Positions 278-18,409 of a stretch of DNA of 64,000 nt are shown here, piece by piece. The stretch spans positions 307,218 through 371,217 of the forward strand of contig JAUTCQ010000012.1 of the NCBI GenBank assembly GCA_030673845.1, in the 5' to 3' direction. Made by a program: the position numbers and the translations under genes. The notes below the pieces were generated by a model. That model had not been told where the DNA came from, ran no database searches, and saw only the letters and a list, made by a program, of their open reading frames with translations. Source of the stretch: Verrucomicrobiota bacterium JB022 (GTDB lineage: Bacteria; Verrucomicrobiota; Verrucomicrobiia; Opitutales; Oceanipulchritudinaceae). How positions within the stretch are numbered: the stretch's first letter is position 1; each line of letters opens with the position of its first letter.

Positions 278-1453
278 ATGCACAAAACCCTTTGCCTACC
301 CATCCTGTTACTGGCCATGAACCACGTCACCGCCCATCCAGAACTCGTCGACCCCAAGGCCAATGCGCAGACCGTGGCGCTCTACGAGAACCTCCGGGCG
401 GTGGCGGCTGATCATGTGTTGTTTGGCGCCCAGAATACCACCGCCTACGGGCATGGCTGGGTAGGCAAACCGGGCGACGGCCAGTCCGACGTCAAGGCAG
501 TGACGGGCTCCTTCCCTGCCGTCTATGGCTGGGATCTGCAGGATCTCACACAAGCCTCTCACGTCGAGGAGCAAAGCTACAACCTCTCGCAGACCAACTT
601 AGTGGCGTGGTGCAAGGAAGCTTACGAACGCGGCGGCGTGATCACCTTTGCCTGGCACATGGAAAACCCCGTGACTGGCGGCAGCTTCTATGACTTGACG
701 CCTGCCGCCGCCACGATGTTGCCCGGTGGAGACAACCACCAGAGCTACCTCCAGACGCTGGACCGCGTGGCAGACTTCTTCAAGGAACTGGCGCCCGTGC
801 CCGTGATCTTCCGCCCTTTCCACGAACACAACGGAGACTGGTTCTGGTGGGGCAAGGGCTTTGTGACGGAGGAGGAATACATGCAGCTGTGGCGCATGAC
901 GGTCCACTACCTGCGCGATGAAAAGGGCGTGCACAACCTGCTCTATGCGTTCTCGCCCGACCGCAGCCGCATGGACCTGAGCGAGGGAGAAGAAGCCTAC
1001 TTTTACGCCTACCCGGGAGACGCTTACGTCGACATCCTGGGGATCGACAACTACTGGGATGTCGGCCACTCCGCCAACGAGGCCTCGCCCAAGCAAAACC
1101 ATGCCGATTTTGTGCGCAGCCTGGAGATGGTGGTGCAGTTGGCCACCGCGCGCGACAAGATCCCTGCCTTGACGGAAACGGGTATGGATACGCTGCCCAA
1201 CCCGCAGTGGTATACGGAGGTGTTGCTGGCCGGCCTGAATGCCAACGCCACGACCCGCCGCATTGCCTACGCGCAAGTGTGGCGCAATGCCAACAAGGAG
1301 CTGGAGGGCCGCGATCACTTTTACGTGCCCTACCCCGGCCACCCCGCCGCAGAAGACTTTGTGAAGTTCAAGCAGAGCGGGCTGATCCTGTTCGAGGACG
1401 AACTGCCCGACCTCTACCGCGAAACCAAGGCTGGCAAAGAAGCAAAGGAGTAG
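278..1453 (+). CDS. Glycoside hydrolase family 26 endo-beta-1,4-mannanase, secreted
   Basis: 391-aa ORF with an N-terminal signal peptide (MHKTLCLPILLLAMNHVTA). GH26 signature 'FRPFHEHNGDWFWWG' (RxxHExNxxWFWWG) and an upstream 'WHMENP' catalytic-region motif. Confidence 0.85.
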   Translation: MHKTLCLPILLLAMNHVTAHPELVDPKANAQTVALYENLRAVAADHVLFGAQNTTAYGHGWVGKPGDGQSDVKAVTGSFPAVYGWDLQDLTQASHVEEQSYNLSQTNLVAWCKEAYERGGVITFAWHMENPVTGGSFYDLTPAAATMLPGGDNHQSYLQTLDRVADFFKELAPVPVIFRPFHEHNGDWFWWGKGFVTEEEYMQLWRMTVHYLRDEKGVHNLLYAFSPDRSRMDLSEGEEAYFYAYPGDAYVDILGIDNYWDVGHSANEASPKQNHADFVRSLEMVVQLATARDKIPALTETGMDTLPNPQWYTEVLLAGLNANATTRRIAYAQVWRNANKELEGRDHFYVPYPGHPAAEDFVKFKQSGLILFEDELPDLYRETKAGKEAKE

Positions 1454-2889: not shown

Positions 2890-3702
2890 ATGAATAAGTT
2901 CCTTGCCTCTCTCTCGATCCTGGGTGTCGCTGCGGCTAGCCAAGCCTATGCGCTCTGGGGCGTTAGTGCCGACAATTCGCTGATCAAGTTCGATGCCAGC
3001 AATCCGAGCGTGATCCAGAGCCGCACGGCCATTACCGGGCTGAACGATCCGTTCGCGTCGATCCTCGACTTCGACTACAACCCCAACGACGGCTATTTCT
3101 ACGGCGTCGACACCGGCGCGAACGTTTACCGCATCCGCTCCAACGGCGTTGCGACCCAGATCGGCAGCTTTGGCCCCAGCGGCTACGACGCCGATATGGC
3201 CTACGATCCGTTCTTTGGCAACTTCCGCTGGGTCAGCGATTTCGCCGAGAATGCGATGCTCGAGCTCGATGGCTCCTTCAGCTTTGGCGGCGACTTCTTT
3301 TACAGCGTCGACGACGTGAACTTCGGCAATACGCCTTCGCTGACCGGCATCGGGATCGACCCCGACTTCGGCGAAATGTACATGATCGATCCCGAGCTCG
3401 ACGTGCTGGTGCAGACCTTCGACCCCGATGGCGGCGAACTCTTCACCATCGGCAGTCTCGGCCTCGACATCACCGGCTTCTCCTCGTTGGTGATCGACGA
3501 CAATGGCAACCTGTTTGCCGCCCTGTCCGTCGACGGCTTCACCTCCGGCCTCTACTCGATCGATCTGATGACCGGCGCCGCCACCTGGATCGGCGAATTC
3601 GGCGAAGGCATCAACGCCATCGCCGTGCCGGAGCCCCGCGTCTACGCCGCCCTCGCCGGGCTGCTCGCGCTGGGCCTCGCCGTAATCCGCCGCCGCCGCT
3701 AA
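2890..3702 (+). CDS. PEP-CTERM-anchored secreted protein (exosortase substrate)
   Basis: Signal peptide MNKFLASLSILGVAAASQA. The C-terminus 'VPEPRVYAALAGLLALGLAVIRRRR' is a PEP motif followed by a hydrophobic helix and an Arg cluster. The Gly/Asp-rich beta-type body has no enzyme motifs. Confidence 0.75.
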   Translation: MNKFLASLSILGVAAASQAYALWGVSADNSLIKFDASNPSVIQSRTAITGLNDPFASILDFDYNPNDGYFYGVDTGANVYRIRSNGVATQIGSFGPSGYDADMAYDPFFGNFRWVSDFAENAMLELDGSFSFGGDFFYSVDDVNFGNTPSLTGIGIDPDFGEMYMIDPELDVLVQTFDPDGGELFTIGSLGLDITGFSSLVIDDNGNLFAALSVDGFTSGLYSIDLMTGAATWIGEFGEGINAIAVPEPRVYAALAGLLALGLAVIRRRR

Positions 3703-3722
3703 GGCCGCGCATTTTCTCCTGA

Positions 3723-5366
3723 TTGTCTTCGTTACTTAGGTCTCTCATGAAGTATACCCTCCTCCTCCTTGGCGCGACGACCTTGTCCGCGTCTCTCTTC
3801 GGCGGTTACAAGACCACCGAGCCCTCCTACCTGAACGCCGTCGCTGGTGCCGACTTCACTTTCGAAGCGTTGTTGACCACCGGTGACCGGATCCCGATGA
3901 CGGGTGGCACGCCGAGCGAAGAATACACGATGGTCGGCATTCCCGACGCGATGGGCATCTATCGCGACCCGGTCACCGCCGAGCCGATCCTGTTCCTTGC
4001 TCACGAGCTGCCCAGTGGCCGCACTTCCCAGCCGATCGTCGGCGGCGACACCTACATTGGTTCCCTCGTCTCCCGCTTTGTGCTCGACTCGACCGATGGC
4101 TCCCTCGTGAGTGGCGGCCTCGCTCACCAGGCCCTCTACCTCGAGAACGCCTTCTACAGCCCCGAGCCTCCCAAGCAAGGCGACTCCACGTCCTTTACCC
4201 GTTTTTGCTCCGGCTCGTTCGCGGGCCCGATGCACGGGATGGATCGCCCGATCTTCCTCACCAACGAGGAAAGCAGCGGCGGCACCTTCGACGCAGCCGG
4301 CTCCCAAGCCGTGGCCATCTTCGACGGCGAGATGCACACCCTGCCGGCTCTTGGCCGTGTAGTGCGTGAAACGACCATCGTTCAGCCCCGCCGCGACCGC
4401 TACTCCGTAGTGATCTCGTCCGAAGACGGTGGCTTTCCTTCCTACGTTTACATGTATGTGGGCACCAAGCAGCGCTCGGGCGATGCGCTGACCAAGAATG
4501 GCTTCACCGGTGGCAAGATCTACGTGCTCGGCGGTAATGGTGCCGACGCTGGCAAGAATGCCTCCACCTTCACCGAAGGCTCGATCAATGCCCGTTGGAT
4601 CGAAGTGCCCAACGCCGCCAACCTGACCGACGCCGAGCTGAAGCTGGCTGCCGACGCGGCGGGTGGTTTCGGCTTTGTGCGCGTGGAAGATATGGAATTC
4701 GACCCGCAAGACCCGACCCGTCGCCTCTTCGTCGCCACCACGGGTGGTTACGGCCCAAACAGGCTCGGTCGTCTCTACGAAGTGAGCATCAACCCGCGCC
4801 AGCCTTGGGCCACGGGGTCGATGGACGTGATCTACAACTCCGACCTCGTCGTGACCCCTGGCGGCACGATGCAGAACGCCTTCTCCGGCCCCTTCTACTC
4901 CGCCAATGGCGGGACGGAAGTGCAGCCCGAGTATGTGGGTGGCGATATCAATTCCGGCATCAACTACCCGGTGAGCATCGACAATATCGCGGTGAACGAT
5001 AACTACATCGTGATCTGCGAAGACACGAACAGCCCGGCCAATGCCGTCTACGCCCAATACAGCCGCAACGGCGGCGTGTGGACGCTCGATCGCAACAATG
5101 GCTACGCCGCCAAGTTCCAGTCGCAGTTCAACCTGGATTACGCCGAAGCTCGCGACAATGTGAGCCTCAGCGCCGGCCAGTGGGAAGCCTCCGGTGTGAT
5201 CGACGCCAGCGCCATCTTCGGCCCGGACACCTTCGTGATCAACGTCCAGGCCCACGGCACCGACCGCACAAACGCTCCCGACGGCATGGGCGGCTACCTT
5301 ACCAAGCAGCAAGCGGACGCCCGCTTTGCCGAAGACGGCCAGCTGCTGATCATGCGCGCGAACTAA
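3723..5366 (+). CDS. PhoX-like / DUF839 family secreted phosphatase-like protein
   Basis: 547 aa with an N-terminal signal-like segment (MKYTLLLLGATTLSA). Motifs resemble PhoX: 'RFCSGSFAG' (cf. NCAGGxTPWGT), 'IFLTNEESSGG' (cf. LTCEEN), 'DNIAVNDNYIVICEDT', and the C-terminal 'FGPDTFVINVQAHG' (cf. FSPDGKTLFVNIQHPG). It lies 21 nt downstream of the PEP-CTERM gene. An alternative start exists at M9. Confidence 0.65.
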   Translation: MSSLLRSLMKYTLLLLGATTLSASLFGGYKTTEPSYLNAVAGADFTFEALLTTGDRIPMTGGTPSEEYTMVGIPDAMGIYRDPVTAEPILFLAHELPSGRTSQPIVGGDTYIGSLVSRFVLDSTDGSLVSGGLAHQALYLENAFYSPEPPKQGDSTSFTRFCSGSFAGPMHGMDRPIFLTNEESSGGTFDAAGSQAVAIFDGEMHTLPALGRVVRETTIVQPRRDRYSVVISSEDGGFPSYVYMYVGTKQRSGDALTKNGFTGGKIYVLGGNGADAGKNASTFTEGSINARWIEVPNAANLTDAELKLAADAAGGFGFVRVEDMEFDPQDPTRRLFVATTGGYGPNRLGRLYEVSINPRQPWATGSMDVIYNSDLVVTPGGTMQNAFSGPFYSANGGTEVQPEYVGGDINSGINYPVSIDNIAVNDNYIVICEDTNSPANAVYAQYSRNGGVWTLDRNNGYAAKFQSQFNLDYAEARDNVSLSAGQWEASGVIDASAIFGPDTFVINVQAHGTDRTNAPDGMGGYLTKQQADARFAEDGQLLIMRAN

Positions 5367-5393
5367 GCTTCGTCGCCTTCTAACGTTTCCCGC

Positions 5394-5422
5394 CATCCGA
5401 CTGGTCCTATCCCGGTCGGATG
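5394..5422. terminator. Inverted repeat / stem-loop (CATCCGAC-N13-GTCGGATG) between phoX-like and SPFH operon
   Basis: Perfect 8-bp arms are seen in the sequence. There is no strong U-tract after it. It is a possible terminator, attenuator or operator. Confidence 0.35.
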
Positions 5423-5468
5423 TGCCTGTCTCCCGAGTTCGCTTCGCATCCTGACCTGACTTCTTCCC

Positions 5469-7388
5469 ATGCCTTCAACTGCCACCACCGCCAAAGCTCC
5501 GGCCTGGGGCTGGATCCTGACCAGTCTGAGCGCCTTGGAAGCGGTCGTCTTTGCCCTGCTGGCCCACTTCCAGCAATTGCCTTTCGCCTATCCCGTAGCG
5601 GCCCTAGCCACCTGGGTGGCAGCCCTGCAGCTAAACCTGCTCCTGCCACCGGCCACCCCTGCCGTTGCCGCCCGGCCCAAGGGGTTCTGGGCGCGCCTGC
5701 TGCATCGCCTGCGTCAGATCCTCCCTGACACCATGCGCGCTTTTCGCCGCTGCCTGGTCGCGACCGGCGCGCTGGCGGCTTTGGCGCTCATGCTGCCTTT
5801 CCTCCTGCAGATCCGCGCGGGGCTGCACGCCTCGGAGACGCTGGAGCAGATGAATTTCCCTGCGGTGGTGCTGCTCGTGGCGGCCTTCCTCGGCTACTTC
5901 GGGCGTCTCTATGCCCAGCTCTCCGAGCCCGATGCCGACCGCGTCGCGCAGCTGCGCCTCGATGTATTGGGCGGGGTCCACCAGCTCGCCGCAGCCGTGT
6001 TTGGCCTGCTGGCGGTGGTCCTGTTTGTGGAGCTGTATGCCGGGTTGCTGATCCACCCCTGGGTAGCTCTGGTCTTGTGCCTGCTGCTTGGCTTCTGGAT
6101 CATCGAAACACTGCTGCGCTGGGCCCTGCGCTTTTACCAGCCGCGCCGCATCTGGCTGCAGGCGCCTCCACTGGGCACCACCCAGCCCATGCGCCTGCTG
6201 ATACCCCGCAGCCACCCGCTGTGGCAACGCGTGGACGTGGGCGATGCAGAAGCACTCTTCAAGCTGTCGGAGATGTGGTTTTTGCCCAGCATCCTGCGTG
6301 CACTGCCCGCCCTCGCGGCTACGGTCGCCGTCCTGAGCTGGGTGGCATCGTCTTTCCATAGCGTGCCACTGGGCCACCAAGGGCTGCACCAGCACCTTGG
6401 CCGGACGCAAGACCAACTGCTGCAACCGGGCCTGCACGTCACCCTCCCCTTCCCGTTTGGCCGGGTCGAGACCATTCCCGCCGACGAGTTGCGCATGGTC
6501 GTGCTCGGGCTACAGGCCGACACCGGCGAGCCGATCCTCTGGAATCGCGACCATTATGTGGGCGAGGTCAACCAACTCGTGGGGGTGGGCGAAGAGCTGC
6601 TGACGATCAGCGTGCCGATCTACTACCACATCAAAGACCCGCGCAGCTACTTCCTGAATACGACCAACCCGGAAGTCACCGTCTCGCAAGCCGGTTATCA
6701 GGCGCTTTTGCACCACACGTTGCACGAATCGGCCTTCGGCATCATGACAACCGAGCGCGAGGACCTGCAGCAGGCGTTGCATGAAGCGATCCAGGCCGAG
6801 CTCGACTCCAAGCAGTCGGGCATCTCGATCGACCTCGTGTGCCTGCGCGACATCCACCCGCCGGTCGAAGTCGGCCCGAGCTACCAGGAAGTCGTGAGCG
6901 CAGAGGAAGACCGCGAGGCATATATCCACGATGGTCAGGCCTACCAGAGCCAGAACCTCCCGCGCGCCCAGTCTCAGCAGTTCAAGCTGATGGCGCAGGC
7001 CGATGCCAAGCATGCCGAGCGCGTCTCCCAGGCGAACGGCGAGGCCAACAGCTTCCTGAGCGTAGAGGCCAGTTATCAGGATGCGCCGGAAGTCTTTCGC
7101 GTGCGCAAGACCTATGAGGCCTTCGACGAGAGCCTCAGCGGCGTCAAAAAGCTGGTGGTCGACGAGAGCTTCCAGGGCTCCATCCCCGCCTACATCGACG
7201 TGCGCAAGACGCTCAACCCCGATTTGATCAACGAAAGCATCCCGGCCGTGCAGACGCTCATCCCTGCCCTGCAGGCCAAGCCTACCGAATTTGACCGCGC
7301 CGTCGATGGCTACCTGCGGGCCGGCACGGGTGCCATCCCGGCCGTCAACCCGCGCCAGGCCGACGCAGACTACCTTCTGGAGGAATAA
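5469..7388 (+). CDS. SPFH/band-7 domain protein (HflK-like) with a large N-terminal polytopic membrane domain
   Basis: 639 aa. Residues 1-~300 contain multiple hydrophobic helices. They are followed by an SPFH-like core and a charged helical tail (…AEEDREAYIHDGQAYQSQ…). It is the first gene of a tightly packed operon. Confidence 0.7.
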   Translation: MPSTATTAKAPAWGWILTSLSALEAVVFALLAHFQQLPFAYPVAALATWVAALQLNLLLPPATPAVAARPKGFWARLLHRLRQILPDTMRAFRRCLVATGALAALALMLPFLLQIRAGLHASETLEQMNFPAVVLLVAAFLGYFGRLYAQLSEPDADRVAQLRLDVLGGVHQLAAAVFGLLAVVLFVELYAGLLIHPWVALVLCLLLGFWIIETLLRWALRFYQPRRIWLQAPPLGTTQPMRLLIPRSHPLWQRVDVGDAEALFKLSEMWFLPSILRALPALAATVAVLSWVASSFHSVPLGHQGLHQHLGRTQDQLLQPGLHVTLPFPFGRVETIPADELRMVVLGLQADTGEPILWNRDHYVGEVNQLVGVGEELLTISVPIYYHIKDPRSYFLNTTNPEVTVSQAGYQALLHHTLHESAFGIMTTEREDLQQALHEAIQAELDSKQSGISIDLVCLRDIHPPVEVGPSYQEVVSAEEDREAYIHDGQAYQSQNLPRAQSQQFKLMAQADAKHAERVSQANGEANSFLSVEASYQDAPEVFRVRKTYEAFDESLSGVKKLVVDESFQGSIPAYIDVRKTLNPDLINESIPAVQTLIPALQAKPTEFDRAVDGYLRAGTGAIPAVNPRQADADYLLEE

Positions 7389-7391
7389 CCC

Positions 7392-8405
7392 ATGAGCTCC
7401 GAAAGCAACGAAACACCTTCGCGCCAATGGCTCGGTCGCCTCGCCCTCTTTGGGCTGGGGGCTGTCGTCGTCACCCTCACCTCAGCCAGCTTTATGCTGC
7501 GCGACAACGAGCGGGGCGTCGTGCTGCGCTTCGGCAAGCCGGTGCGCGAAGTCGACCAGGCGGGCTGGTATGCCAAGCTGCCCTGGCCGATGGAACAGGT
7601 CGAGCGTATCGACAGTCGCCTCCAATACGGCGAGATCCGCCTTTCCGAGACGCTGACACGCGACAAGCGCAACATCATCGTGCCGATGTACTACGCCTGG
7701 CGCGTGGAAGACCCGCTGCAATTTCTCCGCAGCGTCGGCACGCTGGAGTCGGGCAACGAAAAGCTGGACGCAATCATCTCCAGCGCCCGCAATTCCGCGC
7801 TGGGCCGTACCGATTACGCCTCCCTCGTATCGGTAGAAGAGAGCCGCGAGACGATGGCGGCGCTCGAAGGGCAAATCCTTGCCCAGGCCAGCGCCGACGC
7901 CCGCGAATACCTCGGCATCGGCCTGAGCAGCGTGGGCGTATTGCAGCTCAACCTGCCGGAGAACAACACCGAGTCGGTCTTCCGCCGGATGCGGGCCGAA
8001 CGCAAGCGCGAGGCCTCCCAATACCGCGCCGAGGGCAAGAGCGAAGCCGAACGCCTGCGCGCCGATACCGACAAGCAAACGGCTATCCTCCTCGCCGAGG
8101 CCAAACGCTACGCCGAGGAAAAACACGGTGAGGCCGAGGCCACGGCCGCACGCATCTACGCCAGCGCCCACAGTCAGGATCTTGAGTTTTACCTCTTCAT
8201 GCGTCAGCTCCAGAGCCTGCGCTCGGTCGTCGACCAGAATACGACCCTTTTGCTCGATACCAGCACCCCGCCCTTCAGCCTGATCAAGCCAAGCGGGGAG
8301 ATGGAGGCCCAGATGATCCGCACCCAGCAGGTGCCGACCCGCAAGGGCCTGCCCGCCGCCGCCGCGATCGGCCTCGACCCGGAGGACACTCCCGATGCGC
8401 CGTAA
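7392..8405 (+). CDS. SPFH/band-7 domain protein (HflC-like)
   Basis: 337 aa with a single N-terminal TM (LALFGLGAVVVTLTSASFML). The SPFH core contains 'ERGVVLRFGKP'. It is followed by E/R/A-rich coiled-coil helices. The start lies 4 nt after the previous stop. Confidence 0.75.
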   Translation: MSSESNETPSRQWLGRLALFGLGAVVVTLTSASFMLRDNERGVVLRFGKPVREVDQAGWYAKLPWPMEQVERIDSRLQYGEIRLSETLTRDKRNIIVPMYYAWRVEDPLQFLRSVGTLESGNEKLDAIISSARNSALGRTDYASLVSVEESRETMAALEGQILAQASADAREYLGIGLSSVGVLQLNLPENNTESVFRRMRAERKREASQYRAEGKSEAERLRADTDKQTAILLAEAKRYAEEKHGEAEATAARIYASAHSQDLEFYLFMRQLQSLRSVVDQNTTLLLDTSTPPFSLIKPSGEMEAQMIRTQQVPTRKGLPAAAAIGLDPEDTPDAP

Positions 8406-9492
8406 GCAACGCCAGAATCAGGACGGGCTGATGGTTGCTGCCCTCCTCCTCACGCTCAAGAACCTCAAGCCTGCCGCCTTGTGGGTGTTCCTGCTGCTGC
8501 TGGGGCTCTATACCGCCTCCGGCGTGCGCACGGTGGGGCCGAGCGAGACAGGCCTGTTGCTGCGCTTCGGCAAGCTGCAGCCCAAGACCTACGAGGCGGG
8601 CCTCGTCTTTGGCCTGCCCGAGCCTTTTGACGAACTGGTATTGGTCCAGACCGGAGCCGAGCACAGCCTGACGCTCGAAGCCTGGGCCTCCGGCGGCAAG
8701 AAGATCGGCGACCCCGACCGCGAATACCAGTATACCCTGGAGGAGGTGAGCAACTGGATGGCCGAAAACGGCGGCAACATGCCCCCCACCCGGAAGGTGA
8801 CAGTCGACGGTGCCACGATGCTCAACCCAATCGTCGACGGCTATACGCTGACGGGCGACCGCAATATCCTGCAGGCCCGCTTTACCTTGCGCTATCGCAT
8901 TCACGATCCGGTGGCATATTTCCGCCTCGGCGAGCGCCGCGACGAGCTGATTGGCGGCCTGCTCTACCAGAGCGCCACTCACACGCTGGCCGAAATGCGG
9001 ATCGACGATTGCCTGACGGAGAAGCGCGACCAGTTGATCGAGCGGGTCGAAAGCGGTGCGCAGGCCAAGGCCGATGCGCTGAGCCTCGGCATCACGTTGA
9101 CCGCTTGCGAGCTGCAGGAGCTTTCCCCTCCGCGCCAAGTGCTGGCGGCCTTCGAAGACGTGATCAACGCCCAGATGTTTGCCAAGACGCTGCTGGAAAA
9201 TGCCCGCGAATACCAGGCCAACAGCCTGACGCAGGCTGCCGGACAGTCCGAAGCCATCCGCCGCCGCGCCGAAGCCTACGCCCAAAACCTCGTCGCCAAA
9301 AGCGAGGGCGAGGCTGAAGCCTTCCGTTCCTTTTACGCCGAATACCAGGAGCACCCGCACGCCGTGCTCTCGCGCGTCTACCTCGACTCGCTCGACTACG
9401 TGATGCAGCAGGCCCAGTCCTCCGCCCTTTTTGGCTCCGACCACGCCCAGCCGACGCTCTTCATCGAGCCGTCGCCCAAATACTCGCGCTAG
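8395..9492 (+). CDS. SPFH/band-7 domain protein (HflK-like)
   Basis: 365 aa with an N-terminal TM (MVAALLLTLKNL…VFLLLLGLYTA) and the SPFH motif 'ETGLLLRFGKLQ'. A C-terminal helical region follows. It overlaps the previous gene by 11 nt, which indicates translational coupling. Confidence 0.75.
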   Translation: MRRKQRQNQDGLMVAALLLTLKNLKPAALWVFLLLLGLYTASGVRTVGPSETGLLLRFGKLQPKTYEAGLVFGLPEPFDELVLVQTGAEHSLTLEAWASGGKKIGDPDREYQYTLEEVSNWMAENGGNMPPTRKVTVDGATMLNPIVDGYTLTGDRNILQARFTLRYRIHDPVAYFRLGERRDELIGGLLYQSATHTLAEMRIDDCLTEKRDQLIERVESGAQAKADALSLGITLTACELQELSPPRQVLAAFEDVINAQMFAKTLLENAREYQANSLTQAAGQSEAIRRRAEAYAQNLVAKSEGEAEAFRSFYAEYQEHPHAVLSRVYLDSLDYVMQQAQSSALFGSDHAQPTLFIEPSPKYSR

Positions 9493-9494
9493 CC

Positions 9495-11432
9495 ATGTCT
9501 TCCGAAAAAGTTTCCATCCCCGAAGAGATGCAAGGCCGCCTGCGGCTCGTCTTCATCTCCAGCGCCTTCCTCATCGCGGGCCTCTTGCTGCCCTTGTTAC
9601 GGCCCGACCAGGCCCTGCTGGGCAGCATGCTGGCGCTGATCGGTGCCGTTGTCATCGCCGCACCGATCCTGATCGACGTGATCGGCTCGATGCGCACCTC
9701 GGGCTTTGCCGCCACCCAGTTTTATATGGACCAATATGTGGTCCTCGCCCTCGCCGCCACCCTCGCCACCGGCAAATACGTGACCGGCGGGATCGTCGCG
9801 ATCATCCTCGTGCTCGGCCAGATGCTGGAAGAGCGCACCGTGCTGGGGGTCGAAAGTGCCCTTGCCCGCCTGCGCAAGCTCTCGGAAGTCCGGGCGCGCC
9901 GCCTGCGCGACGACGGCACCGAGGAGGAGGTCGACGCCGCCGAGCTGAAGGTGGGCGAGCGCGTCCGCATCCGCCCTGGCGATTTTGTCCCGACCGACGC
10001 CTTGGTGATCAGCGGCCACTCACAGCTCGACCAGGCCAACATCACCGGCGAGTCCTTGCCGGTCGACGCCGGTGAAGGTGCGGAGATCTTTGCCGGCACG
10101 ACCAACCTCACCGGCCTACTCGAAGCCCGCGTGGTGAAGGAAGCCGGTGACACCGTCGTGGCCAAGGTGCAGCAGATTATCGAAGAGGCCAAGGAGTCCG
10201 AGGCCCCGATCATCCGCATGGCGGAAGACTACGCGCGCTATTATACGCCGTTGATTATCCTGATCGCGGCTTGCGTCTTCTTCTTTACCCGCGATGTCGA
10301 CCGCGCGATTGCGGTGCTGATCGTGTCGATCCCCTGCGCCTTCGTACTCGCCAGCCCGTCCGCCATGGTCGGGGCGATCTCCAGCGCTTCGCGCCTGGGC
10401 ATGCTGATCAAGAGCACGCGCAACCTCGAGCTGGGCCGCCAGATCGACACGGTGGTCTTTGACAAAACGGGCACGCTGACCCAAGGCGTGCTGCGGGTGG
10501 AAGAGATCCGCACGCATGGCGGCTGGACCGAAGAGGCCGCCCTGGCGCTTGCTTCCGCCCTGGAGCAGCACTCGAACCACCCGGTGGCCAAGGCAATTCG
10601 GGAGGCCGCGCGCCACCTGTCGCTGCCCGAAGTGCAAGACTTGAGCGAAGCCCCAGGGCGCGGCGTAACGGCAACCGTGGGCGAGCAGCGCGTGCTGGTG
10701 GGCCGAAAGCTGTGGCTGGAGGAGCAAGGCGTGACCGTCGAGGGGCTGCCGACCGACCAGCCGCTGAGCTTGATTCACCTCGCGGTGGACGGCCAGCAGA
10801 TCGCGACTTTTGGGCTGGCCGACCAACTGCGCCCGGAAACGGCGGAGGCGCTGGAGCGTCTGCGCTACATCGGGATCGAGCGTTTTGTGATGCTGACGGG
10901 CGACCGCCAGCCGGTGGCGGAGGCGATTGCGGCGCGCGTAGGCATTGCGGAGTTTCGCGCCGAGTGCCTGCCGGAAGACAAGCAGATCGAGATCACCAAG
11001 CTGAAGGAAAGCGGCTGCAAGGTGATGGTGGTCGGCGACGGTCTCAATGATGCCCCGGCGCTTGCTTCGGGCGACCTGGGCGTGGCGATGGGCGCCCTCG
11101 GCAACGATGTGGCCGTCAACACCGCCGATGTGGCCCTGATGACAAACGACCTGCGCCGCCTGGCCGACCTGCTGGAGCTGTCGCACCGCACGGTGGGCAT
11201 TATCAACCAGAACCTGCTTTGCGGCTTTGGGCTGATCGTGGTCGCCATCGTGCTGTCGACCGCAGGCTTTGTCAGCCCGATCCTGGCCGCATTTTTCCAC
11301 GAGTTCAGCGCATTTTTTGTCATCTTCAACAGTGCTCGCCTGATGCGTTTCGATGGGCTGGAAGAGGAGTTGGCAGAATCGAACAGAATAGAACCGGAAG
11401 CGAACCCCGGCACAGTTCCGGCTCTGGTTTGA
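9495..11432 (+). CDS. Heavy-metal-translocating P-type ATPase (P1B, short-N-terminus P1B-4-like) with atypical 'IPC' TM motif
   Basis: A-domain 'TGES' (ITGESLPV), phosphorylation motif 'DKTGTLT', hinge 'GDGLNDAPAL', and the P1B N-domain 'HP' motif (SNHPVAKAI). The TM6 motif is 'SIPCAF' where P1B pumps have CPC/SPC. No N-terminal metal-binding domain. The start is 3 nt after the previous stop. Confidence 0.85.
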   Translation: MSSEKVSIPEEMQGRLRLVFISSAFLIAGLLLPLLRPDQALLGSMLALIGAVVIAAPILIDVIGSMRTSGFAATQFYMDQYVVLALAATLATGKYVTGGIVAIILVLGQMLEERTVLGVESALARLRKLSEVRARRLRDDGTEEEVDAAELKVGERVRIRPGDFVPTDALVISGHSQLDQANITGESLPVDAGEGAEIFAGTTNLTGLLEARVVKEAGDTVVAKVQQIIEEAKESEAPIIRMAEDYARYYTPLIILIAACVFFFTRDVDRAIAVLIVSIPCAFVLASPSAMVGAISSASRLGMLIKSTRNLELGRQIDTVVFDKTGTLTQGVLRVEEIRTHGGWTEEAALALASALEQHSNHPVAKAIREAARHLSLPEVQDLSEAPGRGVTATVGEQRVLVGRKLWLEEQGVTVEGLPTDQPLSLIHLAVDGQQIATFGLADQLRPETAEALERLRYIGIERFVMLTGDRQPVAEAIAARVGIAEFRAECLPEDKQIEITKLKESGCKVMVVGDGLNDAPALASGDLGVAMGALGNDVAVNTADVALMTNDLRRLADLLELSHRTVGIINQNLLCGFGLIVVAIVLSTAGFVSPILAAFFHEFSAFFVIFNSARLMRFDGLEEELAESNRIEPEANPGTVPALV

Positions 11433-11436
11433 AGCC

Positions 11437-12105
11437 ATGGGGTGGCGCACGCTCAGTCTCGGCTCGGGGTGGTTGGTGGCAGCCGGCTTGCTGGCGTGGA
11501 TGAGCCTTCGCCCCACGGATGAGCCCGCCCGCTCCCCTGCCCCGGCAATGCGCGAGCTGGCCGCGCCCGACCAGACGGCCAAGCTGATCGAGCTGCATGA
11601 ATCGGTCTTTGCACTGACAAACGATTTGCGGCGTGCCCAGAGCCGAATTGGCGAGTTGGAGGCCGCCTTGAGTGCGCGACCGACCGAAACGGCTCTGGTC
11701 GAGCAACCCCCGGTCTTCCATGCACCCGGGGGTCGGGACCCCAACGAGGCCAACCTCGTGGCGCAACTCGGCTTTGCCGACCGTGAAGCACTTAACCGCA
11801 CGCTGAAGCATTGGGTGATTCAGGACCCGCCGGCCGCCACCGCCTGGCTGAACGAAAACGCTTCCAGCCCAGTGTTTGACGACAGCATCCATCTGGTAGC
11901 GCAGTATCTGGTCGCGCAGCAGCGCTATGAGATGGCCTACGAGTGGGCGGCTTCGATCCACGACCTCGCTCGTCGCCAGCAGGCGGTGACGGAGGTGTAT
12001 GCCGATGCGTATCGCAGCGGCTCGATGGACGAGCAGACGCTAGAGAACTCCGGCCTGCCCGAGGCCGTCGTCGCCAGCATCGAGCGGGGCGACTTCTTTG
12101 ACTGA
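11437..12105 (+). CDS. Hypothetical membrane-anchored protein (last gene of SPFH/ATPase operon)
   Basis: 222 aa with an N-terminal hydrophobic anchor (LSLGSGWLVAAGLLAWMSL) and then a helical region (…LRRAQSRIGELEAALSA…). It starts 5 nt after the ATPase stop. I recognise no known domain. Confidence 0.5.
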   Translation: MGWRTLSLGSGWLVAAGLLAWMSLRPTDEPARSPAPAMRELAAPDQTAKLIELHESVFALTNDLRRAQSRIGELEAALSARPTETALVEQPPVFHAPGGRDPNEANLVAQLGFADREALNRTLKHWVIQDPPAATAWLNENASSPVFDDSIHLVAQYLVAQQRYEMAYEWAASIHDLARRQQAVTEVYADAYRSGSMDEQTLENSGLPEAVVASIERGDFFD

Positions 12106-12116
12106 GGCACAAAAAA

Positions 12117-12142
12117 GGCCCCGGCAGGTGTTGCCGGAGCCT
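12117..12142 (-). terminator. Rho-independent terminator (CCGGCA-GGTGT-TGCCGG) serving the pectate lyase gene; hairpin shared by convergent operons
   Basis: A perfect 6-bp inverted repeat is immediately preceded on the + strand by AAAAAA, which is a U-tract on the minus-strand transcript. It sits between the convergent stops at 12105 and 12167. Confidence 0.6.
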
Positions 12143-12166
12143 GGGTAAAGCCTGTTGCAGAGTCGA

Positions 12167-13714
12167 TTAGCTGATGGTGTCGACGTTGTTGCCGAGGTTC
12201 AGGTAGTCGATGTATTCCTGCGGGTTGGTGCCGTTGAGGTATTCCTCGATGTTGGTGTAGCCATCGCCGTCGGCATCTTCAGCGGCATCGGCGGGGTTGT
12301 GCGGGTCGAGGCCGTAGCGGATTTCCCACTCGTCGGGCATGCCGTCGTTGTCGGAGTCGACCGGCACTTCGTCGGGCGAGAAAGTGTAGTTCGGGTAGCC
12401 GCCCACTTCCTTCGGGTCGTCGATAATACCGTCACCGGAAACCACCTTGCCCGTGCGGACCGACTCGATCACGCGCTGGTCCACCGAGTCGCGGCGGGGC
12501 AGCGTGGCACCGACCTTTGCGAGGACGGATTTGTAGGCCTCGTGGGCGGTCTCCTGCTTGACCGGCCAGCCTTCGAAGGGCGTGTAGACGCGGGCGAACT
12601 GCTTGAGCTTTGCCTCGCTGTCGAACATTTCCATCTCGTCGAGATCTTCGACCTGGACGCCCTTCCAGTTGTCCTTGGTCACTGCGGGGTGGCCTTCCAT
12701 CACGTTACCGGCGATGTACCACTTGCCGGGGCGGGCGGGAGCCTTCGGATACCAGTCGCCGGCACGCCACTCGCTGCCGGGCGAATACATGTTGCGGACG
12801 TTGGGGGTCAGGCGCACCAAGACATCCTTCATGTCCTTGCTCGCGGCCGGGCCGGGCTTGTAGTAGTTGTTGATGACGTTGATCAGCGAGGTTTCGTCGC
12901 CGCCATCCATCGTCCGGTGGCCCCAGTTGAACACCACGTTGTTGCGGTAGTCGAACTCGCCGGACATCCCGATGGAGGGGTTGCGGGCGGTGTTGCTGGC
13001 AAAGAGGTTGTGGTGGAAGGTGGAGTCCTTGCCGCCCCAGGTGCCGCCGAACGCGTGGTTCTTGGCGTTGAGGGCTTCGCTGGAAATGGACCACTGGATG
13101 GTCAGGTTTTCGACCGGGTACTTACGGTCGCCACCCTTTTCCTGAGGCTCCATGCGGCGGTAGAGCGAGAGGTTTTCGTCCATGCCCCAGCTGGAGGAGC
13201 AGTGGTCGATGATGATCTGGCCGATGGGGTTGCCGCCAATGTTATCCGAACCTTGTCCGCCTTCGGGACGTCCGCGGCGGGAGCGGAGGTGTCGAACGAT
13301 GACATTGCTCGTGTTGATATTGAGCGAATTGTAGGCGAGGCAAATGCCGTCGCCCGGGGCCGATTGGCCAGCGATCGTGATATCGGGGTGGTTGATGTCG
13401 ATATCCGACTCAAGCTCGATGATGCCGGCGACGCGGAAGACCACGATGCGGGGGCCTTCGGCTTCGGCTGCCTCACGGAAGCTGCCGGGGCCGCTGTCGT
13501 TGAGGTTGGTGACGATCATCACCTTGCCGCCACGACCGCCCGTGGCCTGCATGCCGCCACCCCAGGCACCGGGGAAGGCCGGGATCTTGAGATCCATGCG
13601 GATCGGGTGCGGCGGGATCTGGCCGGGCTCGGGCACGGTCTTTTCCTGCGCGAAGGCAGCGCTGCTGCCCAGAAGCGTAAGGGCGGCAAAAAACGAGGGG
13701 AGGGTTACTTTCAT
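12167..13714 (-). CDS. Pectate lyase, polysaccharide lyase family 1, secreted, with C-terminal thrombospondin type-3-like Ca-binding repeats
   Basis: Signal peptide MKVTLPSFFAALTLLGSSAAFA; the start is set at this Met inside the longer ORF. PL1 motifs 'IIDHCSSSWGMDENLSLYR' and 'NLFASNTARNPS'. The C-terminus carries DxDxDG repeats (DSDNDGMPDEWE, DADGDGYTNIEEY). Confidence 0.85.
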   Translation of the reverse strand: MKVTLPSFFAALTLLGSSAAFAQEKTVPEPGQIPPHPIRMDLKIPAFPGAWGGGMQATGGRGGKVMIVTNLNDSGPGSFREAAEAEGPRIVVFRVAGIIELESDIDINHPDITIAGQSAPGDGICLAYNSLNINTSNVIVRHLRSRRGRPEGGQGSDNIGGNPIGQIIIDHCSSSWGMDENLSLYRRMEPQEKGGDRKYPVENLTIQWSISSEALNAKNHAFGGTWGGKDSTFHHNLFASNTARNPSIGMSGEFDYRNNVVFNWGHRTMDGGDETSLINVINNYYKPGPAASKDMKDVLVRLTPNVRNMYSPGSEWRAGDWYPKAPARPGKWYIAGNVMEGHPAVTKDNWKGVQVEDLDEMEMFDSEAKLKQFARVYTPFEGWPVKQETAHEAYKSVLAKVGATLPRRDSVDQRVIESVRTGKVVSGDGIIDDPKEVGGYPNYTFSPDEVPVDSDNDGMPDEWEIRYGLDPHNPADAAEDADGDGYTNIEEYLNGTNPQEYIDYLNLGNNVDTIS

Positions 13715-13912
13715 ATGATCAGTTCGGGGATTGCGGATATCTTCGCAGAATGGGACAACATCTATGAAAACCGCAAAAACCGGCATCCGTTGCAATTCAA
13801 CCATAATAACTTACACCACGATCATCTGATGAACGTTCAACGGCAGACCCAGCCAGTTTCACCTCGGTTTTCATGAGGTTGGCCTTGAACAAACCGGCTG
13901 CGACAGCCCGCG

Positions 13913-15364
<1,452 letters not shown>

Positions 15365-15598: not shown

Positions 15599-18409
15599 AT
15601 GATTCGTAAAACCCTCCTCTCGCTGAGTTCGCTGGCGCTGATGCTGGCCTCCGGCTCCTCTCTCTGGGCCGATGGCACCGTAACCGGGATCGTACGCGAC
15701 GCGCAGACCGGCCTGAGCCTCGAAGGCGTCCAGGTGTCCGCCAACGGCGCCACCACCACGACCGACCGCAGCGGCCGCTACTACCTCCAGCTCCCCGCCG
15801 GCACGCAAACGCTGCGCTTCGACTACCTGGGCTCCGAGACCAAGAGCCAGGTAGTGGACGTGGCCGACGCCCGCACCGCACAGGCCGACATGAGCCTAGG
15901 GCTCGAAATTTTTGAAATGGATGCGTTTGTGGTCCAGGGTCGCGCCCTCGGCACCGCCCGTGCGCTCAACCAGCAGCGCGTGTCCGACAACCTGCGCAAC
16001 GTGGTCTCGGCCGACGCCATCGGCAAGTTCCCCGACGAAAACGCCGCCGAGGCCCTTTCCCGCCTCCCGGGCGTCTCCATCGAGCGCGACCAGGGCGAAG
16101 GCCGCTTCGTGATCATCCGCGGGATCGACCCGGAGCTCAACAGCGTGTCGATCGACGGCGTGGCCCTCGCCACTCCTGGCGCGGACGAGCGCAAGACGTT
16201 GCTCGACACCATCCCGACCGAGACTCTCGCCTCCCTCGAAGTGACCAAGGCCGTGCTGCCCGACCAGCCGGGCGACTCCATCGGCGGCCACATCAACCTC
16301 GTGACGCCCAGCGCGTTCGACCGCGACGAGCGCTTCATCACGGCCTCCGGCGCCGCCCTCTACTCGGACTTGACGGACGAGTTTGGCTACAAGTTCAGCG
16401 CCTTCTATTCCGACTTCCTCGATGCCGACCGCAAGTGGGGCATCGCCCTCTCCGCCGTCGCCTCCGAGCGCAAGTTTGGCTCCGACAACATGGAGTCCGA
16501 GCCTTGGGAGCTGGTGGAGGGCGACGATGGCCAGGAATACTGGGCCATGACCGACGCGATGGAGATCCGCGAGTACAACCTGAGTCGCGAGCGCCACGGC
16601 CTGAGCTTCAACCTCGATTACCGCCCCACCGACACGGCCCAATACTACCTGCGCGGCAGCCTGAGCGAGTATACCGACCAGGAAATCCGCCACGCCGGAG
16701 TGCTGAGCTTTGGCGAAGAGTGGGAAGATGAAAACGAGGACGAAGGCGACATCACCGAGTTCACCGGGCTGGGCGACAACGGCTACACCGCCGAAAATGT
16801 GGGCCTGGCCCGCGAGATCAAGGACCGCGAAGAAACGATGTCGATCTACGCCATCTCCGCCGGCGGCCTCAACCGGATCGACAGCCTCACGCTCGATTAC
16901 AAGGCTGGCTTCTCCTTCGCCAAGGAAGAGACGCCTTACGATTTCGAGGCCAAGTTCGAACTGCTCGAAGACGCCAACCACACCGACCCGAGCGACGGCG
17001 ACTTCGAGGTCTACCGCATCAATCCCGACTTCGCCTTCAGCAATACGCGCGGCGATACGCTGGGCATCAACTTTGCCGGCCCAGGCTCGGACATCGACCC
17101 CTACGACGCCAACAGCTACGAATTCGATGAAGTCGAGGCTGCCCGTCAGGACGTGGAGGAAAAGCATTACACGGCCGAATTCAACGCCCGCTACGACTTT
17201 GAAGACAGCTTCCAGAGCTACGCCAAGGTGGGCGGCATGGTCCGCGCCAAAAACAAGACGAGCGACGTCAGCGTCCGCGTCTCCGACGACAACCCGGGCG
17301 ACCTCGACGAGCTGGCCGGCTTTGTCGAGAGCGACGTCCGCGATGCCTACCGCACCCGCCTTCCGCTCGTGACGGAGAGCATCCGCGATTACTTCCGCGC
17401 CAATGAGGGCGCGTTCGCGATGGAAGACGACCTCGAAGGCAACGTGGTCGAAGACTTCGATGCAGACGAATACGTGTGGGCCACCTACGCGATGGGCGGC
17501 ATGACCTTCGGCCAACTGAACGTGATCGCCGGTGCCCGCCTCGAGCATACCGACTTCCAAACCAAGGGCTTCCGCTATGATGGCGACAGCGAGATGGTGA
17601 CCGAAACGGAGTTCGAGAGCGACTACACGAACTTCCTGCCCGGCGTGCACTTCCGCTACGAGATCACGCCCGACTTCATCGCCCGCGCCTCGTGGACGAA
17701 TGCCTTCGCCCGCCCCACCTTCGCCCAGCTCTCACCGGGTATCGTCGTCGATGGCGACGAGATCGAACAGGGCAACCCGGAGCTGGATCCCTATGAATCC
17801 ATGAACTGGGATGCCTCGCTCGAATACTACTTCCAGAACCTGGGGGTGGTCTCCATGGCGGTGTTCCACAAGAAGGTCGACAACTTTATCTACGGCTACG
17901 AATTCACCGACGACGCCACGGGCAACGACATCAGCACCTACCGCAACGGCGAATCGGGCGACATTACCGGCGTGGAGCTGGGCTACCAACAGCGCCTGAC
18001 CTTCTTGCCGGTCGAGGGCTTCACCTTCCTCGCCAACGCCACGTGGTCGGAGAGCGAGGCCGAAGTGCTCGAACGCGGCGACATGCCCTTCGTCAAGCAG
18101 TCCGACCTGGTGGGCAACGTCGCCCTCTCCTACGACTACGGCAACTTCTTTGTCCGCGTCTCCGGCACTTACCGCGATGGCTACCTGGACGAGCTGGGCG
18201 AAGAGGCCTTGGCCGACCGCTACATCGACAGCCACTTCCAGGTCGACATCAGCGCGTCTTACACCTTCGCCCACAACTGGACGGTTTTTGCCGACCTGAT
18301 CAACGTGACCAACGAGCCGCTGCGCGCTTATTGGGGCGAATCGGGTCGCCTCGCGCAGTTCGAGGAATACGGCTGGTCGGCTGTGCTCGGCCTGAAGTGG
18401 AGCCTGTAA
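15599..18409 (+). CDS. TonB-dependent outer-membrane receptor with N-terminal carboxypeptidase-regulatory-like domain
   Basis: 936 aa with a signal peptide and a 'GTVTGIVRDAQTGLSLEGVQVS' CarbopepD_reg-like domain. The plug region is '…NVVSADAIGKFPDENAAEALSRLPGVSIERDQGEGRFVIIRG…'. The long beta-barrel has an aromatic-rich C-terminus. Confidence 0.85.
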   Translation: MIRKTLLSLSSLALMLASGSSLWADGTVTGIVRDAQTGLSLEGVQVSANGATTTTDRSGRYYLQLPAGTQTLRFDYLGSETKSQVVDVADARTAQADMSLGLEIFEMDAFVVQGRALGTARALNQQRVSDNLRNVVSADAIGKFPDENAAEALSRLPGVSIERDQGEGRFVIIRGIDPELNSVSIDGVALATPGADERKTLLDTIPTETLASLEVTKAVLPDQPGDSIGGHINLVTPSAFDRDERFITASGAALYSDLTDEFGYKFSAFYSDFLDADRKWGIALSAVASERKFGSDNMESEPWELVEGDDGQEYWAMTDAMEIREYNLSRERHGLSFNLDYRPTDTAQYYLRGSLSEYTDQEIRHAGVLSFGEEWEDENEDEGDITEFTGLGDNGYTAENVGLAREIKDREETMSIYAISAGGLNRIDSLTLDYKAGFSFAKEETPYDFEAKFELLEDANHTDPSDGDFEVYRINPDFAFSNTRGDTLGINFAGPGSDIDPYDANSYEFDEVEAARQDVEEKHYTAEFNARYDFEDSFQSYAKVGGMVRAKNKTSDVSVRVSDDNPGDLDELAGFVESDVRDAYRTRLPLVTESIRDYFRANEGAFAMEDDLEGNVVEDFDADEYVWATYAMGGMTFGQLNVIAGARLEHTDFQTKGFRYDGDSEMVTETEFESDYTNFLPGVHFRYEITPDFIARASWTNAFARPTFAQLSPGIVVDGDEIEQGNPELDPYESMNWDASLEYYFQNLGVVSMAVFHKKVDNFIYGYEFTDDATGNDISTYRNGESGDITGVELGYQQRLTFLPVEGFTFLANATWSESEAEVLERGDMPFVKQSDLVGNVALSYDYGNFFVRVSGTYRDGYLDELGEEALADRYIDSHFQVDISASYTFAHNWTVFADLINVTNEPLRAYWGESGRLAQFEEYGWSAVLGLKWSL

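Follow-up and report, generated by a model that had tools for sequence, protein, structure and literature searches.

A probable ancient module of three SPFH proteins and a P1B-type transition-metal ATPase, and its divergent version in Verrucomicrobiota

What SPFH proteins, such as stomatin, prohibitin and flotillin as well as HflK/C, do for their clients is still debated, and FtsH is the only well-understood bacterial client known to us. Here we analyze a gene unit coding for three SPFH proteins of the HflK/HflC type and a P1B-type P-type ATPase, which lies at positions 5469 to 12105 on the plus strand of a 64,000-nucleotide (nt) stretch of DNA from Verrucomicrobiota bacterium JB022 (contig JAUTCQ010000012.1, positions 307,218 to 371,217; hereafter the window, to which all coordinates without a locus name refer). 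Sequence comparisons and structural models make it likely that this unit is the Verrucomicrobial version of an ancient and widespread module, in which an SPFH1-SPFH2-SPFH3 triad accompanies a transition-metal ATPase. A second, genetically hard-wired SPFH client of this kind, namely a metal pump fused to its scaffold in some phyla and encoded beside three scaffold paralogues in others, would give a clean comparative system for the study of SPFH function.

The closest described counterpart is the hmtA locus (PA2434-PA2439) of Pseudomonas aeruginosa, where three HflK/C-family genes and a P1B ATPase gene are Zur-regulated and induced by zinc starvation (PMC4542158, PMC8531726, PMC11761036). In this locus PA2439, described as 'HflK family', comes first and is followed by PA2438 (HflC), PA2437 ('HflC family') and the ATPase PA2435. 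Genes of the locus are up-regulated in a znuA mutant (PMC4542158); the PA2439 promoter is bound by Zur and PA2435-2439 are induced by zinc depletion (PMC8531726, PMC4542158, PMC11761036), with the PA2435, PA2438 and PA2439 proteins rising as well (PMC11761036). For the ATPase itself, HmtA, cytoplasmic import of Zn and Cu has been reported (Lewinson et al. 2009, summarized in PMC8456098 and PMC10393844), for which reviews call for confirmation. The SPFH genes were read in these studies as FtsH modulators, and their link to the ATPase was not analyzed (PMC4542158, PMC8531726, PMC11761036; also PMC9431628). Likewise, full-text literature searches found no paper discussing a partnership of SPFH proteins with P-type ATPases. 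The initial annotation of the window, made from the sequence alone, had taken the arrangement to be undescribed. This probably holds for the connection between the SPFH proteins and the pump, which is visible in the Pseudomonas zinc-starvation data and does not seem to have been recognized, but not for the genes, which were already in the Pseudomonas papers.

A four-gene order common to Verrucomicrobiota and Proteobacteria

The unit in the window begins with SPFH1, an HflK-like protein of 639 amino acids (aa) (5469..7388, from the list of open reading frames (ORFs) and a Band_7 match), which is followed by SPFH2, an HflC-like protein of 337 aa (7392..8405, matching Band_7 and TIGR01932), and SPFH3, a second HflK-like protein of 365 aa (8395..9492, matching Band_7 and, below its cut-off, TIGR01933). 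These precede the P1B-type ATPase of 645 aa (9495..11432, recognized by TIGR01525 and its catalytic motifs) and a small anchored protein of 222 aa (11437..12105), which was taken from the ORF list and has no family match. All five genes are on the plus strand. Gaps of 3 nt, 2 nt and 4 nt lie at the first, third and fourth junctions, and the second is an 11-nt overlap; the values of 4, -11, 3 and 5 given initially are coordinate differences. The overlap places the start of SPFH3 within the end of SPFH2, and a GGAGGA Shine-Dalgarno-like sequence precedes the start of each of these two genes. No convincing terminator was found within the five genes. Thus, the tightly spaced unit is real, and Pfam, NCBIfam and the sequences bear out the gene products that had been proposed; the translational coupling also proposed for these genes is conjectural.

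The SPFH1-SPFH2-SPFH3-ATPase order is kept in Nibricoccus aquaticus (Opitutae), in Luteolibacter algae and Haloferula chungangensis (Verrucomicrobiae), and in two contigs of metagenome-assembled genomes. A scan of metagenomes with the window ATPase returned 80 loci, of which 28 encode an ATPase at least 55% identical to it. Among these 28, SPFH3 lies directly upstream of the ATPase in every locus with real upstream sequence (23/23), and the full triad is present in every locus with at least 4 kb upstream (11/11). As a control, we took 50 loci from the same scan with other P1B ATPases (<40% identity), 39 of which have at least 2 kb upstream, and none of the 50 has an SPFH gene in its flanks. 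At an intermediate distance, one locus whose ATPase is 41% identical has a divergent SPFH triad alongside. The linkage to SPFH genes is limited to this clade of ATPases, and the conserved synteny taken together with the control set therefore makes the gene arrangement more than a matter of chance.

Searches of plasmids with tblastn recovered the same four genes from a megaplasmid of Paraburkholderia sprentiae and from plasmids of Rhizobium tumorigenes. We then scanned one genome per species with two proteobacterial SPFH1 sequences as queries, the cross-phylum alignment of SPFH1 being too divergent for this purpose, and found a relative of SPFH1 encoded in 484 species genomes. Our counts of proteobacterial loci refer to the best 80 of these 484, which come from Paraburkholderia, Burkholderia, Trinickia and 34 Pseudomonas species, P. 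aeruginosa not being included. The order SPFH1-SPFH2-SPFH3-ATPase and a common strand were seen in all 79 full-length loci of this set, and this is also the gene order of the window. Positions 1 and 2 correspond one-to-one across phyla as reciprocal best matches, with SPFH2 of the window having as its best matches the position-2 proteins of other loci (112-163 bits), and position 3 is HflK-like in both groups. The four-gene order is thus common to Verrucomicrobiota and to Alpha-, Beta- and Gammaproteobacteria. Conservation of the synteny in related genomes had been named beforehand as a check on the proposed link between the SPFH genes and the ATPase, and it extends far more widely than the immediate relatives of the window.

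A further line of evidence is provided by gene fusions. In one locus (L002), a homologue of SPFH1 of 989 aa (P0024) comprises a P1B ATPase with an HflK-like SPFH protein fused at its C-terminus, and its gene is followed by two further SPFH genes. We searched 1.84 billion representatives exhaustively with HMMER; the best 150 matches include 57 proteins of 961-1301 aa, all but one of which (56/57) have an N-terminal ZntA-like and a C-terminal HflK-like part. These fusions make up 56 clusters at 50% identity and are found on many independent contigs, with Candidatus Fervidibacterota, Elusimicrobiota and Planctomycetota as named sources. Hence, the fusion is a family and not an artefact. Two further fusion loci have additional SPFH genes nearby, and on an Elusimicrobial contig (L093, 4243-5909) CbiQ and an ABC ATPase, which are parts of an ECF-type cobalt/nickel transporter, lie between two SPFH genes and the fusion. 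Recurrent fusion of this kind is strong independent evidence for a physical partnership, and we regard it as very probable, on these comparative grounds, that the pump has a dedicated physical partner in the SPFH triad.

The fusions also suggest how the two might be held together. SPFH1 has a polytopic N-terminal domain which is absent from the fusion loci, so that one and the same SPFH subunit begins with either the ATPase or this domain. The SPFH1 N-domain may thus be an adaptor that holds the pump when the two polypeptides are separate. In the model of the fusion protein (mean pLDDT 85.7, pTM 0.66), M6 of the ATPase is followed by a basic cytosolic helix (617-633), an extra transmembrane (TM) helix (635-652) and the SPFH domain. 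P-type ATPases have a cytoplasmic C-terminus; with one extra TM helix following it, the SPFH part is therefore periplasmic, as in HflK/C. If the model is correct, the SPFH domain of the fusion must lie on the side opposite to the cytoplasmic domains of the ATPase.

The SPFH triad and the metal site of the ATPase

All three SPFH proteins belong to the SPFH/Band 7 superfamily (PF01145) by the Pfam gathering score, with E-values of 2e-8 for SPFH1, 4e-25 for SPFH2 and 1e-14 for SPFH3. For HflK and HflC proper we relied on the curated equivalog cut-offs of TIGR01933 or NF008181 (HflK) and TIGR01932 or NF008259 (HflC). SPFH1 and SPFH3 reach 131.5 and 139.7 bits on TIGR01933, both below its cut-off of 159.4, and SPFH2 passes TIGR01932 (158.7 bits, cut-off 134.4), yet remains far below NF008259 (141 versus 427). 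Nor does the locus have the form of a two-gene hflK-hflC pair in an hfq-hflX-hflK-hflC context with one TM helix in each protein: it has three genes, the first with seven TM helices, flanked by PhoX-like and P-type ATPase genes. The scans with Pfam and NCBIfam found no NfeD domain in any gene of the cluster, which sets it apart from the SPFH-NfeD operons.

SPFH1 is composed of an N-terminal seven-helix membrane domain (residues ~1-297), the SPFH domain and a long coiled-coil helix (470-556). The extra polytopic domain, which the initial annotation had noticed, is borne out: its first 290 aa (DNA 5469-6338) contain seven hydrophobic helices, the loops between them being strongly basic on every other side, and AlphaFold2 predicts for it a confident helical bundle (pLDDT 85-95), which continues into the SPFH domain and a coiled-coil helix of ~85 residues. 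The best structural match of SPFH1 is HflK, alone or in the HflK/C-FtsH complex, and the solved stomatin-AQP1 complex (9zd2) is also among its fold matches. SPFH2 has one N-terminal TM helix and a predicted periplasmic SPFH domain, and SPFH3 has one N-terminal TM helix and an insertion of ~50 aa in its SPFH domain. We also considered the SPFH1 N-domain as a homologue of the membrane domain of the ATPase and rejected this (hhalign probability 0.4%).

The ATPase scores 531.8 bits on the NCBIfam model of heavy-metal P-type ATPases (TIGR01525, cut-off 346) and contains the Pfam domains E1-E2_ATPase and Hydrolase (HAD). It has the full set of catalytic motifs (DKTGT, TGES, HP and GDGxNDAP), with the phosphorylation site at D323 in DKTGT; there are eight predicted TM helices and no N-terminal HMA domain. 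These motifs, the xPC motif of M4 and the topology of MA/MB plus M1-M6 drawn from hydrophobic segments place it among the P1B-type ATPases. Its PDB matches are CopA, sCoaT and ZntA, which score 206.9, 203.9 and 177.6 bits, respectively, with its C-terminal half. Across phyla, the ATPases of the module score 335-372 bits with each other, as against 245 for E. coli ZntA and 272 for E. coli CopA.

In the putative metal site, IPC of M4 takes the place of CPC in CopA and ZntA and of SPC in sCoaT, HEFSA of M6 aligns with HEGST of sCoaT, and H602 aligns with the essential D714 of ZntA. The window ATPase and all its close relatives have (I/M)PC in M4, with MPC in the locus L003, and HEFSAFF in M6, whereas the proteobacterial and fusion-type ATPases have CPC in M4 and HN(V)(G/S)T or HQVSS in M6. 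Invariant through all ATPases of the module are Pro-Cys in M4, Asn in M5 and His in M6. In the classifications of Arguello and Rosenzweig, P1B-4 pumps are defined by SPC in M4, HEG(G/S)T in M6 and the lack of an HMA domain. The window ATPase likewise lacks this domain, but has IPC for SPC and keeps only His and Glu of the M6 motif; judged by these residues, it is a relative of P1B-4 with a His-Glu-Cys core and not a clean member. A site of one Cys in M4 and a His-Glu pair in M6 like that of P1B-4 pumps makes a divalent transition metal of the Zn, Co, Fe or Cu type the likely substrate. By the same residues, the metal handled by the pump of the Verrucomicrobial clade may be different from that of the proteobacterial one.

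Genomic context and regulation

As first delimited, the unit in the window ended at five genes. These do form a compact unit, but the conserved Verrucomicrobial cluster is larger and usually includes the DUF4394 and PhoX-like genes upstream (2890-5366). The first of these, on the plus strand at 2890..3702, codes for a secreted DUF4394 beta-propeller-type protein (PF14339, E 1.4e-30), which has a signal peptide and, at its C-terminus, a PEP-CTERM sorting signal. The second, at 3723..5366 on the same strand and with a probable start at ATG 3747, codes for a secreted PhoX-like protein with a detected signal peptide. The window copy of the latter has no Pfam match of its own; it is 51-79% identical to neighbours that pass the PF05787 PhoX model (41-55 bits, cut-off 24). 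Most Verrucomicrobial loci have such a pair immediately upstream of their triad, with the DUF4394 gene in the same position in ten loci; two loci (L102 and L103) are without it, and L003 has two secreted Dioxygenase_C-domain proteins in its place. PhoX-type enzymes use Fe and Ca rather than Zn, and the pair could therefore be a metal-sparing or metal-receiving partner of the pump.

The 222-aa protein at the other end has an N-terminal hydrophobic anchor, which its homologues share, and a variable linker that leads to a helical C-terminal domain of ~100 aa, again conserved. The protein has no family match in Pfam or NCBIfam, is 23-30% identical to four homologues and shares with them the invariant W126, W137 and W170. 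By tblastn, homologues were found downstream of the ATPase in about ten metagenome loci, all in Verrucomicrobial clusters. A variation of another kind is seen in a sub-lineage of four loci (L104, L107, L108 and L111) with ATPases ~58-60% identical to that of the window, where an extra 0.8-1 kb, probably an inserted gene, separates SPFH2 from SPFH3.

Between the PhoX-like gene and SPFH1 is a gap of 102 nt with a hairpin, an inverted repeat with 11-nt arms and no T-run after it (5394..5422, plus strand), which could be a processing or attenuation site. At the other end, a strong GC-rich hairpin of 11 pairs, 8 of them G-C (12116..12142), has its T-run on the minus strand and therefore serves the convergent pectate-lyase-like gene, while also marking the 3' boundary of the unit. 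An Rfam search of the leaders found no riboswitch or other known RNA. A scan of 3000-14500 found no sigma-70-like promoter site and is uninformative for a Verrucomicrobium. A minus-strand ORF of 554 aa at 3732-5396 was rejected as a gene, being a shadow of the PhoX-like gene with neither a family match nor a conserved homologue signal; similar antisense ORFs are numerous across this region of GC-rich DNA.

The genes flanking the cluster point to the use of polysaccharides and show no evident connection with the module. They code for a GH26 glycosidase (278-1453, plus strand), a pectate-lyase-like protein with a bacterial TSP3 repeat (12167-13804, minus strand), a sigma-54-dependent NtrC-type response regulator (13913-15364, minus strand) and a TonB-dependent receptor of the TIGR01782 type (15599-18409, plus strand). 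The cluster of Nibricoccus likewise ends against a convergent pectate-lyase-like gene.

In Pseudomonas, an imperfect palindrome, CGTTATATCGTAACG, preceded by a TTTCAC word, is found 45-70 nt upstream of the SPFH1 start in 31 of the 34 loci (L055-L088; for example, L070 7372-7384). It has at most two mismatches to a Zur-box core, and coding-region controls of the same length have at best 3-5. The palindrome is similar to a Zur box and agrees with the 'weak Zur site' that the papers report in the PA2439 promoter. A different word, GCGCGCTA(A/C)ATTG, is common to 26 of 45 Burkholderiaceae loci upstream of SPFH1 (L009-L054, 7550-8010).

Among the neighbours of the proteobacterial loci, the Paraburkholderia plasmid copy adjoins znuA-like ABC genes, a PCu(A)C chaperone and a gene annotated only as 'GTP-binding protein', which we take as COG0523-type. 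The flanks of the Pseudomonas loci (cyclopropane-fatty-acid synthase, cardiolipin synthase, Lrp and LysE) gave no metal clue. In the Pseudomonas locus L063, of the nitroreducens group, a small secreted or lipoprotein-like gene (11350-11904) lies between SPFH3 and the ATPase, in the position of PA2436, and homologues of it were found only in Pseudomonas species of this group. The ATPase of the Rhizobium tumorigenes plasmid (L008) is 75% identical to that of this Pseudomonas locus and only 55% to that of Paraburkholderia, which suggests that the module has been horizontally transferred between Alpha- and Gammaproteobacteria.

To judge from the hmtA locus and the surroundings of the Paraburkholderia copy, a role of the module in metal homeostasis when metal is scarce is probable; with the Elusimicrobial CbiQ locus added, the contexts probably point to metal acquisition or scarcity rather than to detoxification. 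The metal efflux first proposed for the window is accordingly not established, the only characterized relative, HmtA, being a reported importer of Zn and Cu.

Assembly, rival explanations and comparison with known systems

The initial annotation had envisaged an SPFH assembly organizing or regulating the ATPase, by quality control or by a microdomain confining the metal. The synteny and the fusions make the organizing role the best reading, whereas quality control and the confining microdomain are conjectures. In the arrangement we favour, the three SPFH proteins would build one hetero-oligomeric ring or cage of the HflK/C type on the periplasmic face of the inner membrane, and the pump would sit in the membrane patch of this ring, held either in trans by the SPFH1 N-domain or by covalent fusion. 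From the models we regard this geometry, with the pump embedded in a ring, as about equally likely to be right or wrong. The bulky SPFH1 may alternate with SPFH3 as a slim subunit of the HflK type, and the pump would then be found at some positions of the ring only; we speculate that bulky and slim HflK-like paralogues are a way to space pumps round it. The ring might gate or stabilize the pump, provide its lipid environment or enclose a private periplasmic space.

The last of these possibilities can be taken further, though we consider it improbable: a closed, HflK/C-like vault of the three SPFH proteins over the periplasmic mouth of the pump might form a private, diffusion-limited chamber for a scarce transition metal. 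Within it, the P1B ATPase could pass metal on to enzymes that have just been exported, for example the co-conserved PhoX-like and DUF4394 proteins, and none would escape through porins. Alternatively, periplasmic metal could be trapped such that a P-type ATPase runs as the net importer reported for HmtA. If this were true, it would be a new function of SPFH cages, compartmentalizing an ion and not a protease, and could explain the disputed 'importer' behaviour of HmtA.

A different account, which is compatible with the dedicated partnership but which we hold to be unlikely, is that the triad is an adaptor for quality control by FtsH, the HflK/C-like cage recruiting the protease to control proteolysis of the ATPase. 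The pump would then be a dedicated substrate and no resident of the cage, and its amount would be matched to the metal supply. The HflC score of SPFH2, the HflK-like character of the other two proteins and the structural match to HflK/C-FtsH speak for it. MgtA, another bacterial P-type ATPase, is an FtsH substrate (cited in PMC13220708). Since FtsH itself is a zinc enzyme, a place in a Zur regulon could be meaningful, an interpretation offered in PMC9431628. However, an ftsH gene is linked in none of the more than 100 loci examined, SPFH1 and SPFH3 fall below the HflK equivalog cut-offs, and a covalent fusion of adaptor and substrate, retained in 56 clusters, is more in keeping with a lasting partnership than with degradation.

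We think it quite improbable that the SPFH1 N-domain is instead a channel like the cation diffusion facilitators (CDF), working with the ATPase as a two-transporter relay in which, for example, one loads and the other empties the space under the cage. No CDF is among the best 50 Foldseek matches of the domain, hhalign with E. coli FieF gives a probability of 0.2%, and no member of the family matches Pfam Cation_efflux or has a conserved His or Asp in its TM helices, such as those of TM2 and TM5 in the facilitators. The simple absence of the domain from the fusion proteins also fits an adaptor better than a transporter. Finally, public annotations as 'protease modulator HflK/HflC', shared by the Pseudomonas papers, would make the SPFH proteins ordinary HflK/HflC paralogues serving FtsH or general membrane organization, with no functional link to the pump, but the strict gene order across phyla, the 0/50 generic P1B loci and the recurrent fusions leave this hardly credible.

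Several points weigh against the module as we read it. The evidence for a complex consists of comparative genomics and single-chain models, and the FtsH link retains some probability of its own. Between the window ATPase and those of the proteobacterial modules, identity is only 35-38%, and the former has IPC/HEFSA where the latter have CPC and HN(V)(G/S)T, such that substrate and direction of transport may differ between the two groups. The orthology of SPFH3 across phyla is doubtful, its cross-phylum scores (49-62 bits) being lower than that to E. coli HflK (77 bits). PA2435-2439 were equated with the module by analogy, through the gene descriptions in the papers and the loci of the 34 other Pseudomonas species rather than through the PAO1 sequence, and in one study hmtA itself was not zinc-repressed (PMC8531726). 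The proteobacterial Zur-box-like motif GTTATANTATAAC does not occur in the window with two or fewer mismatches, although a Verrucomicrobial Zur site could differ from it, and neither a Zur-type box nor any other shared regulatory motif was found upstream of the clusters in the window and its Verrucomicrobial relatives.

If the dedicated partnership of triad and pump is correct, the Pseudomonas data appear in a new frame: the three 'FtsH modulators' that zinc starvation induces probably belong to an HmtA machine as its subunits. The direction and selectivity reported for HmtA are unusual, and that it was characterized without SPFH proteins may have a part in this. Hundreds of species have the module, among them Burkholderiaceae associated with plants, fluorescent pseudomonads and Verrucomicrobia that are abundant in fresh water and soil, and a role in trace-metal economy could matter ecologically.

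Among the known systems, the hmtA locus agrees with the cluster in the window in composition and order, as described in the papers and as seen in the 34 other Pseudomonas species with SPFH1-SPFH2-SPFH3-ATPase, and in that the ATPases of the module resemble each other more than they do ZntA or CopA. It differs in the motifs and sequence of its ATPase and in the Zur-box-like motif, which the window lacks. The Verrucomicrobial cluster adds the DUF4394, PhoX-like and 222-aa genes, and Pseudomonas L063 adds its small gene. The cluster in the window is, in sum, a divergent variant from the Verrucomicrobia, in which the motif of the metal site is different and further, secreted partners are present. 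With E. coli HflK/HflC-FtsH, in which a 24-mer SPFH cage encloses FtsH hexamers, it shares HflK-like and HflC-like paralogues side by side, N-terminal TM anchors, a periplasmic SPFH domain with a long coiled coil and the best fold match. In contrast to that system it has three paralogues instead of two, one with a seven-helix domain (or, elsewhere, fused to the client), the putative client is a P-type ATPase and not FtsH, the genomic context is different, and two of the three proteins are below the equivalog cut-offs.

Among P1B-4 ATPases, such as sCoaT (PDB 7qbz), CzcP, PfeT and CtpD, the lack of an HMA domain, the xPC motif of M4 and the His-Glu dyad of M6 are matched in the window, unlike the remaining positions of both motifs (IPC, or MPC in L003, for SPC, and HEFSA for HEG(G/S)T). 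P1B-4 pumps are not known to have an SPFH partner. The SPFH-NfeD operons (QmcA-YbbJ and stomatin-NfeD) and the eukaryotic complexes of stomatin with aquaporin or ion channels resemble the module in that an SPFH oligomer has a specific membrane-protein partner. Here, however, there is no NfeD, the SPFH proteins are paired with a primary active pump, and in several phyla gene fusion has made this pairing permanent. The PacL effluxosomes of Mycobacterium tuberculosis (PacL1/CtpC and paralogues) offer a parallel in which a small membrane scaffold, encoded in an operon with a P1B ATPase, assembles this pump into membrane platforms required for metal homeostasis (PMC9374683, PMC13043812). Their scaffold is not an SPFH protein and has no homology to the genes described here, and the platforms are independent of the flotillin-like Rv1488 and detoxify by efflux.

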